DNA of 64,000 nucleotides from Pontimonas sp. (GTDB lineage: Bacteria; Actinomycetota; Actinomycetes; Actinomycetales; Microbacteriaceae). The translations under genes and the position numbers were made by a program. Under the pieces are notes generated by a model that searched no databases, had not been told where the DNA came from, and saw nothing but the letters and a program-made list of their open reading frames with translations. The stretch's first letter is position 1; each line of letters begins with the position of its first letter. The stretch spans positions 15,870 through 79,869 of the forward strand of contig JBIIRH010000001.1 of the NCBI GenBank assembly GCA_044341675.1, in the 5' to 3' direction. Below are positions 1-1,709 of the stretch, one piece after another.

Positions 1-845
1 CAGGACACCCATCCGGTTGCGGGCGGCAGTGGCATCAGCCCATGGCCAAATCCCATACCGATTGTGATTGTGGCGGCGGCCTCATCCACGTGAGTGATCA
101 GCGCCCTCGCCGCCATTACCGGGGCGAACCCGAGGTCCTTGGCGCTTCGATCGTCAAACGGGCTAACCCCAAAGGCGATAATGCCAATTCGGACCATGTC
201 CAATCTGGCCTCGGGGACGTCCTCGGCCGCCGCGGAAGCGGCGATATGAGTGATGGTGGGGGAGAGTCCAGCGGCCCGCGCCACCCTGAGGGCGTCGTGA
301 AAGCGCTCGAGTGAGCGCTGATCTTCTTCCAGAGACGTGTCTGCGAGGTGTGACCAGATTCCTTCGACCACGATGAGCCCGGCGGCTTCGAGTTCCCGAG
401 CCTGGGCGACGAGAGCGGGCCACAGCGATGGCAGACAGCCGTTTCGGTGGAGTCCGGTGTCGATCTTGAGGTGAACTGTTGTGGTGAGGCCTTGGCACTG
501 CTGTGCAATCGCATCCAGCTGCCAGAAATGTGAAATTCCGAGAGTCAGATTCGCGCGGCTGGCAGCCAGAAAGTCATCGTGGGGCGAGATGAGCCAGGCC
601 AGCATGGGGGTGGTGGGAAGTTTTTCTCGAAGAGCGATGCCGGTGGGAATATCGAGCACAGCGAGCGCATCCGCCCCCGCCGCAACAGCTGCCTCCGCTA
701 TGGCGACTCCGCCGTGACCATAGGCTTCTGACTTCACCGCAATCATCAGCCTGGCGTCACCGGCAAGCTGTAATCGCGCTTGGGCAACGTTGGCCCGAAA
801 GTTTGCGAGTGAAATATCGACCCAGAATGGTGTCTCTAGTGCCAT
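1..845 (-). CDS. Alanine racemase-family protein, PLP-lysine-bearing subunit; runs off the left edge; catalytic Tyr loop absent
   Basis: Not in ORF track; translated by hand from ATG at 845: MALETPFWVDISLANFRANV...AVKSEAYGHG...HLKIDTGLHRNG...EGIWSHLAD...HIAASA...DMVRIGIIAFG...PVMAARALITHVDEAAATITIGMGFGHGL. All Alr barrel motifs present. Confidence 0.9.
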   Translation of the reverse strand, partial: MALETPFWVDISLANFRANVAQARLQLAGDARLMIAVKSEAYGHGGVAIAEAAVAAGADALAVLDIPTGIALREKLPTTPMLAWLISPHDDFLAASRANLTLGISHFWQLDAIAQQCQGLTTTVHLKIDTGLHRNGCLPSLWPALVAQARELEAAGLIVVEGIWSHLADTSLEEDQRSLERFHDALRVARAAGLSPTITHIAASAAAEDVPEARLDMVRIGIIAFGVSPFDDRSAKDLGFAPVMAARALITHVDEAAATITIGMGFGHGLMPLPPATGWVS

Positions 846-1492
846 GACCTCACCACCCGCGAGCCCAGGTGGGCGAGCAACGCAGCCTCTGGTCGCTGGG
901 ACCATGAGCTCCACTGGGCCAGGGAGGGGGAGTCCCCCCAGATCATCGCTCGGTCGCCAACCGTGACTGCTGCGTTCCCGACGTCCACCACGCACTGGTC
1001 CATAGCTATGCGACCGGCGATGGGGAAGAGAGCTCCGCCGAGGGCGATCCTGGCGCCTGGGACTCGGGGAACACCATCGGCGAAGCCGGCGCTCACCAAA
1101 GCCAGCGTGGTGTCGCTGGTGGTGGTGTATTCATAGCCGTAGGACACGGGGGTCCCAGAGGGCACAGCCTTAACAGAAATAACGGTGGCGCTGAAGGCCA
1201 CCACTGGGCCTCCTGGGCCGTCCCACCAGCCAGACACCGCGGGTGTGCCAGGCGCAGCGGCATGAAGACCAGTAGGTGCCAGTTGTGAAGAATCGATGAG
1301 GCAGTGCCGAATGCCGACCTCCTGGGCCACTGCGCCCACTTCCGCCAGACCGCAACCGAGAGCGTCGGCCCGGAGATCAAGAACGACGTCGTCCCCGTGC
1401 TCGGCTCGAAGTGCAGTGAGGTTGGTAGTGAGCGCCACACGCGAGAGCTCGGCGCTCCGCAGGGGAGGGCCTGACTTAGTGCGCGCGGTCAT
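836..1492 (-). CDS. Alanine racemase C-terminal-domain protein with vestigial N-terminus (no PLP Lys)
   Basis: VKAVPSGTPVSYGYEY, AGFADG and GRIAMDQ are Alr C-domain motifs; N-terminal LDLRADALGCG aligns to VVKADAYGHG with K->R; only 218 aa. Confidence 0.88.
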   Translation of the reverse strand: MTARTKSGPPLRSAELSRVALTTNLTALRAEHGDDVVLDLRADALGCGLAEVGAVAQEVGIRHCLIDSSQLAPTGLHAAAPGTPAVSGWWDGPGGPVVAFSATVISVKAVPSGTPVSYGYEYTTTSDTTLALVSAGFADGVPRVPGARIALGGALFPIAGRIAMDQCVVDVGNAAVTVGDRAMIWGDSPSLAQWSSWSQRPEAALLAHLGSRVVRSWH

Positions 1493-1709
1493 CCCGCAGT
1501 CGGTCTGTTTCGTCGTGCCACTTGACGATCTTGTCGCCGAGAGACTCGCGGTATTTCGACGCGTGGTGACCGCAGAAGAGAAGCTCTCCTGCGCTGAGCG
1601 TCACACGAACATAGGCCTGTGCACCGCAGCTGTCGCAAACGTCGCCGGCGCCCAGTGGCGCGACAATGTCGAGAGCGCTGTCGGTGGTCTCGGTTGCTGC
1701 GTAAGACAT
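1476..1709 (-). CDS. Small conserved actinobacterial zinc-ribbon protein
   Basis: CDSCGAQAYVRV...LLFCGHH (CxxC...CxxH); AGGAG upstream of ATG at 1709. Confidence 0.8.
   Translation of the reverse strand: MSYAATETTDSALDIVAPLGAGDVCDSCGAQAYVRVTLSAGELLFCGHHASKYRESLGDKIVKWHDETDRLRDDRAH

Follow-up and report, generated by a model that had tools for sequence, protein, structure and literature searches.

Alanine racemase (Alr; EC 5.1.1.1; TIGR00492) is the textbook symmetric homodimer, in which each active site combines the barrel of one chain with the β domain of the other, and a Lys and a Tyr from the partner (Tyr′) serve as the two catalytic bases. We analysed a 64,000-nucleotide (nt) window of Pontimonas sp., a member of the Microbacteriaceae (assembly GCA_044341675.1, contig JBIIRH010000001.1, positions 15,870–79,869), which lies within G000:C51 (1.16 Mb, 82% complete). 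Two genes at its left edge, A and B, resemble Alr when taken together in fold, in the lysine motif for pyridoxal 5′-phosphate (PLP) and in the Lys/Tyr′ residues, the closest solved structures being Streptomyces Alr (1vfh and 5fac). However, Alr is one gene with two sites, whereas A–B comprises two genes with one predicted site; in addition, Asp or Glu occupies Tyr354 and the third position after His166 (His166+3), and B is without most of the barrel. Judged by sequence, A–B appears to fail two defining features of Alr, namely both bases in one gene and Tyr354. A preliminary description of this DNA proposed that neither protein works alone and that an A:B heterodimer rebuilds one complete site. 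The reciprocal residues, the genetic coupling, the fusions and the A:B model described below all support this claim, and A and B are very probably an obligate heterodimer with a shared active site.

Other described systems share some of these features. VanT serine racemase and Bsr carry substitutions of Tyr354, and this gate is likewise changed in lysine racemases and Alr2, as it is in A; the title of one paper reportedly links Tyr354 to substrate specificity. Nevertheless, these enzymes are homodimeric, a single gene encoding both bases, and A and B fall far below the VanT and PRK13340 cut-offs, A scoring 140 against the VanT-G profile (cut-off 460) and 50.5 against the PRK13340-type profile (cut-off 434). 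Against TIGR00492 (cut-off 168 bits), A reached 183.7, B remained below at 92.1, and the genome's own alr scored 271.4; A and B group as a clade of Microbacteriaceae beside actinobacterial Alr. Strych and Benedik are said to have engineered, in 2002, intragenic complementation of Alr Lys and Tyr mutants, where two inactive half-site chains likewise rebuild one site; A–B differs in being natural, fixed in separate genes or fusions, and marked by large deletions. Eukaryotic serine palmitoyltransferase (LCB1/LCB2) is also a natural PLP heterodimer with one lysine-bearing subunit and one site, but it belongs to fold type I and forms C–C bonds, and to our knowledge no second catalytic base has been ascribed to its subunit without the lysine. 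In the accessible part of a review on PLP allostery, heterodimers are mentioned only for ornithine decarboxylase–antizyme (PMC9081730). Searches of the literature outside subscription journals did not turn up an earlier account of a natural racemase of the Alr family encoded by two genes, nor of the locus itself. Database labels for such proteins read only 'alanine racemase' or 'C-terminal domain-containing protein', and the ESM Atlas returned only automatically named C-domain clusters.

Both genes are on the minus strand and share 10 nt, the stop of B overlapping the start of A. Gene A begins at position 845 and runs through position 1 to −222 (G000:C51:15647), the remaining 222 nt (74 codons) lying past the window edge, and would encode a PLP-bearing subunit of 355 amino acids (aa). 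Aligned over its full length to the Streptomyces Alr structures, A displays a whole barrel and a shortened C-domain: K38, R134, H166 and R219 are in place, together with Y42 and E339, the GxxVSYG loop is deleted, TSVELDH stands for GRxxMDQ, and TIGDE stands for TIGYE. The Lys38 codon (732–734), aligned with the Schiff-base Lys39, lies in VKSEAYGHG. The stretch H166-L-A-D169 (339–350) combines the PLP-site histidine with a clade-specific acidic residue at the position where canonical Alr has Asn or Gly, and a second acidic residue, D338, occupies the Tyr354 position. Gene B (836–1492; 218 aa), the putative Tyr donor, consists of a short barrel remnant and an intact C-terminal β domain, and its only Pfam match is the Alr C-domain. 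In this protein Arg41 (1370–1372, in LRADALG) replaces the PLP lysine. The partner-subunit residues Tyr265′, Arg290′, Arg309′ and Met312′ are present: Tyr118 (1139–1141, in VSYG) is the Tyr265′ equivalent, R143 is retained, and the GRIAMD portion (998–1015) of GRIAMDQ contains the equivalents of Arg309′, Met312′ and Asp313′. These observations confirm the preliminary description, which had read the genes as two overlapping minus-strand Alr paralogues, one with the full barrel and lysine and a deleted loop, the other with the Tyr loop and GRIAMDQ, the lysine and most of the barrel gone. It had named an equivalent Tyr beyond the window edge as a possible objection; none was found in those 74 codons of A. 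It had also raised the question of a separate intact alr, and one is present on C39, flanked by acpS and tsaE. The idea that the pair is the sole Alr of the cell was rejected on this ground.

To follow these residues across orthologues, 46 A, 46 B, 35 canonical Alr and 11 intact paralogues were placed in one alignment. All 46 A sequences have K39, Y43, R136, H166, S204, R219 and E355, and none has Tyr265 (45 gaps). Conversely, no B sequence has the Lys, and S-Y265-G, G287, R290, G308-R309, A311 and M312 are found in 46/46. The reciprocal pattern is more than chance, because it recurs in 46/46 aligned pairs. As set out in PMC3146814, one monomer of Streptococcus pneumoniae Alr contributes Lys40, Tyr44, Arg136, His165, Ser203, Arg218 and Tyr352 to the site, and the other Tyr263′, Tyr282′, Arg288′ and Arg307′. 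The division of residues between A and B corresponds to this unprimed/primed split, even inside the C-domain, where the tail lining A's own site is kept in A and lost from B. By alignment, then, all same-subunit residues of the active site reside in A and all partner-subunit residues in B. The B proteins form a length series of 169–384 aa, from a full-length dead barrel to a nearly bare Tyr domain, with the Tyr domain always kept.

Multimer modelling had been suggested at the outset, and its A:B part, run with PLP, passed the controls with a score of 0.94 against 0.01 for the best control, perhaps by virtue of likeness to homodimers. Runs agreed in at least 92% of contacts, and the partner predicted local distance difference test (pLDDT) was at least 91. 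In calibration, 116/157 solved pairs and 2/215 mismatched ones attained the mark, figures that hold only roughly for this case. The modelled interface brings A residues 38–40, 131–136 and 338–339 together with B residues 114–120, 142–144 and 163–166. In the proposed enzyme, A and B would be the complementary halves of a single racemase of the Alr family (PLP fold type III) with one active site; A would bind PLP via Lys38, B would provide Tyr118 as the second base, and the second site would be dead.

The distribution of the pair was surveyed in 150 Microbacteriaceae genomes searched for the Alr C-domain and for DUF7455, a small Cys/His-rich protein encoded beside B (1476–1709, minus strand) and divergent from parE. 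DUF7455 is a near-universal marker of the locus (144/151 family genomes; 143/150 in this search) and not specific to the pair. Eight kilobases around the DUF7455 locus were taken for 131 genomes; 11 were assessed on short loci at which gatD was an immediate neighbour, one was at a contig end, and seven lacked the marker. An A profile was run over all 150 genomes and, with follow-ups, added four further pairs. A–B was found in 49/150 genomes and 34/96 genera, B being cut by a contig end in two, and neither a lone A nor a lone B was seen among the 150 genomes where the locus was complete. The co-occurrence proposed as a check across Microbacteriaceae is thus observed. The extra Alr copies examined, which include part of those in pair-bearing genomes, carry both Lys and Tyr; the exception, a divergent copy of G016, has Asp aligned where the Tyr is expected. 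A search of 234 genomes of other families in the order turned up no pair; most gave one match, and inspection of the 12 top loci showed intact Alr. A contig scan with over-general patterns returned mostly canonical Alr of other phyla and about ten useful loci. The stop of B overlaps the nearest start of A by 4 nt in 39/45 pairs, and five in-frame B–A fusions were identified (G093 and the database proteins P0003, P0004, P0005 and P0208). A single-sequence AlphaFold model of the G093 fusion was discarded (mean pLDDT 38.7). Neutral evolution, which would have spoken against the proposal, was not observed: dS could be measured in 28/30 pairwise comparisons of A or of B, all with a ratio of nonsynonymous to synonymous substitution (dN/dS) of 0.10–0.56, and was saturated in the other two, both of A. 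As judged from these sequences, the pair is coupled, conserved and under purifying selection.

A possible origin of the pair is revealed by an intact paralogue, F, which has both Lys and Tyr and is found in 17/150 genomes in tandem after canonical alr (L199–L207, L289–L294 and L297). F has the acidic residues of A at His166+3 and Tyr354, and A and F make up one barrel clade (Shimodaira–Hasegawa-like approximate likelihood ratio test, 97). The pair and F never occur together among the 150 genomes (49 and 17, overlap 0), and no genus has both. Monophyly of A excluding F was marginally rejected in the approximately unbiased test (p-AU 0.038); therefore the A–B split probably has more than one origin, or F has been restored. 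In G030 the pair occupies the tandem's place, in the order acpS-B-A-tsaE. The pair likely arose, more than once, by reciprocal decay of a tandem of canonical alr and an intact acidic-gate paralogue; as a lead only, a C-domain tree of 94 columns weakly suggests that B derives from the upstream canonical copy (supports 80–89). In several named Clavibacter and Subtercola proteins, F is fused to TsaE. Other Alr paralogues are dispersed outside both conserved loci, and many of them carry His in place of Tyr354 (L301–L308, L313–L315, L318 and L320–L323).

Canonical, Tyr354-bearing Alr has also been split. Single chains denoted A′–B′ occur in G017, G109, G080, G063 and G146; in G054 the split Alr comprises two genes, and its Tyr domain is fused to TsaE (L316:700-2589, L332:754-2562, L338:703-2568, L334:580-2469, L333:775-2757 and L325). 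The chain in G063 and G146 consists of a barrel, a bare Tyr domain and TsaE. The A′–B′ barrels fall inside the canonical clade (95), and common origin with A was rejected (p-AU 8e-5), which makes this split, on phylogenetic grounds, a second event independent of A–B. In G017, G109, G063 and G146 (99–100% complete), A′–B′ was the sole gene found to carry an Alr C-domain; therefore the half-site architecture is arguably active, unless D-Ala has another route in these genomes.

With respect to substrate, the gate residue (Tyr354) is Asp in 28 and Glu in 18 of the 46 A orthologues, whereas 34/35 canonical copies have Tyr there. All aligned A (46/46) and intact paralogues (11/11) carry Asp or Glu at both gate positions, a feature of 0/35 canonical Alr; such a gate suits a substrate with a distal amine. 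In the window's copy, Asp169 stands for a neutral residue and Asp338 for the Tyr gate, and the two would let this amine in and bind it. The substrate would be diaminobutyric acid (Dab) for this Asp-type copy and ornithine (Orn) or lysine for Glu-type copies, Dab being the first guess for the window pair because its A is Asp-type. The names of the proteins can be compared with cell-wall chemotypes. Asp-type F proteins bear the names Clavibacter, Herbiconiux, Subtercola, Planctomonas and Cnuibacter, and the B proteins nearest Asp-type pairs bear Leifsonia, Diaminobutyricibacter, Schumannella, Antiquaquibacter and Pseudolysinimonas; we take these to be Dab genera, with DL-Dab presumed for Clavibacter, Leifsonia and Subtercola. 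Glu-type F proteins bear the names Frigoribacterium, Frondihabitans and Curtobacterium, the last presumably with D-Orn. Genus samples were centred on named loci and may overlap the family sample, and so were not added to it. In these samples, A or F was found in none of 26 Cryobacterium genomes (25 top loci motif-checked), a genus presumed to have L-Dab, and in none of 31 Agromyces genomes (30 top loci motif-checked). Microbacterium gave an A-length match in 39/51 genomes, with B visibly adjacent in 35, and none in 12; M. phyllosphaerae has a Glu-type pair. Published data give D-Glu-L-Dab for the bridge of A. aureus (PMC5217419), D-Lys for Frigoribacterium and Orn for Frondihabitans (PMC7033078, table 3), D-Orn, L-Lys or DAB for Microbacterium species, and D-Orn for the cluster containing M. 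phyllosphaerae (PMC10757982). The clade distribution, compared genus by genus, and the acidic gate suggest a diamino-acid racemase for group B peptidoglycan. The earlier guess of a diamino acid has thereby gained indirect support, although the substrate itself is still one that we infer. We regard a diamino-acid substrate as likely, and, a shade more guardedly, the heterodimer and a role as diamino-acid racemase for the group B bridge as probable in combination.

The neighbourhood of the pair contains candidate partners for such a role. The local order is rpoD-murT-gatD, then, convergent on these, A, B and DUF7455, then divergent parE; murT-gatD (L001:7789-9788, window −2211 to −212) lies just past the left window edge. 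The neighbouring GatD has Gly at the position of the catalytic Cys of S. aureus GatD, 0/94 GatD-like proteins from family loci have Cys at this nucleophile position, and MurT keeps the P-loop and the DxSWIxD motif. These motifs make murT-gatD a candidate for an amino-acid ligase that builds the group B bridge, in place of an amidotransferase, and the D-diamino acid could be joined to the D-Glu carboxyl by the adjacent amide ligase, here MurT with a glutaminase-dead GatD. Across the 131 loci this slot holds murT/gatD (82) or a CofE-like ligase (15), never both and often with an ATP-grasp gene, and an amide-ligase gene is present at 42/48 pair-genome loci. In G062 (L110:547-5362), a CofE-like ligase, B, A, an ectB-type Dab transaminase and an ATP-grasp gene follow one another on one strand. 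The gene content of the slot fits a cassette for bridge assembly and is taken as supporting context. Eight genomes (L070, L080, L083, L085, L089, L116, L123 and L090) contain a separate GatD-like family in which His occupies the nucleophile position, several copies adjoining an ATP-grasp gene.

Alternative explanations differ in whether they question the heterodimer or its substrate. It is hardly credible that A and B are two decaying pseudogenes with complementary losses by chance: B is indeed without most of the barrel and varies from 169 to 384 aa, but the frames are open and coupled in 49 genomes and 34 genera, the catalytic residues are invariant, and dN/dS is below 1 throughout. Pseudogene decay was rejected on the reciprocal residues in 46/46 pairs and on dN/dS, in agreement with the initial argument that decay would hardly give complementary losses. 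An A that is active without B would be a homodimer with Tyr-independent PLP chemistry (aldolase, eliminase or decarboxylase) or would borrow a Tyr from canonical Alr, leaving B as a regulator or a partner of canonical Alr. The whole barrel and shortened C-domain kept in A are compatible with this, and the Tyr265Ala mutant of Alr is reported to gain retro-aldolase activity. We nonetheless find it improbable, as no A without B was seen at complete loci, five B–A fusions exist, and the catalytic Tyr loop, needless for a mere regulator, is invariant in 46/46 B. If the obligate heterodimer is accepted, it might act on Ala, Ser or another neutral amino acid as a second or catabolic Alr unrelated to the bridge. 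A does pass the TIGR00492 cut-off, and since canonical Tyr354 Alr is split likewise, the architecture alone tells nothing about substrate; still, this is unlikely given the intact alr already in G000, gate positions that are acidic in 57/57 aligned clade members and 0/35 canonical copies, and a presence that follows D-diamino-acid genera. A racemase or epimerase acting on another wall substrate (homoserine, glutamate, hydroxyglutamate or acetylated Dab) would suit a neighbourhood that is a variable slot for amide ligases, and group B stems contain several unusual residues. This appears very improbable, because the two added acidic residues speak against an acidic substrate and PLP chemistry requires a free α-amine.

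Several points weigh against a heterodimeric diamino-acid racemase, the explanation that we prefer. The A:B score may come from likeness to solved Alr homodimers rather than from binding, and its controls did not include A:A, B:B or A:canonical Alr. The genomes are related, and the counts are not independent. Chemotypes are tied to the genus and not to the genomes searched, and table 3 of PMC7033078 does not give the Cryobacterium isomer. Asp-type members are also named Pseudolysinimonas and Conyzicola, such that the equation of Asp with Dab may not be strict. A Dab transaminase (TIGR00709) scored above cut-off in only 25/151 genomes without following the Asp type, and this profile gave no such gene in the 82%-complete G000; as a proxy for chemotype it was discarded as uninformative. 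Finally, murT-gatD runs convergently towards the pair, is missing at 16/49 pair loci and is also found in 48/84 genomes that lack the clade, and its adjacency is weak as specific evidence.

A wider interpretation is put forward tentatively: within the Microbacteriaceae, Alr would have been converted repeatedly to one-site enzymes, and the pair would be the missing D-Dab/D-Orn/D-Lys racemase in a swappable ligase cassette that constitutes the genetic basis of the group B bridge. The two bases would be supplied either by separate genes or by the two halves of a single chain, the end form being a bare Tyr domain tethered to a single barrel, and a glutaminase-dead MurT-GatD or a CofE-like/ATP-grasp ligase would attach the D-diamino acid to D-Glu. 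A natural split of Alr's two catalytic bases over two genes would represent a clean reciprocal subfunctionalisation at an active site, of which all stages are seen (intact tandem, full-length dead partner, eroded partner and fusion), probably arising more than once. Despite their 'alanine racemase' labels, A or B singly would be expected to assay as inactive. For the family, specific candidate genes can now be named for the D-diamino acid of group B peptidoglycan, together with an adjacent candidate ligase, and a chemotype long used in the classification of Microbacteriaceae would become testable and perhaps predictable from genomes.
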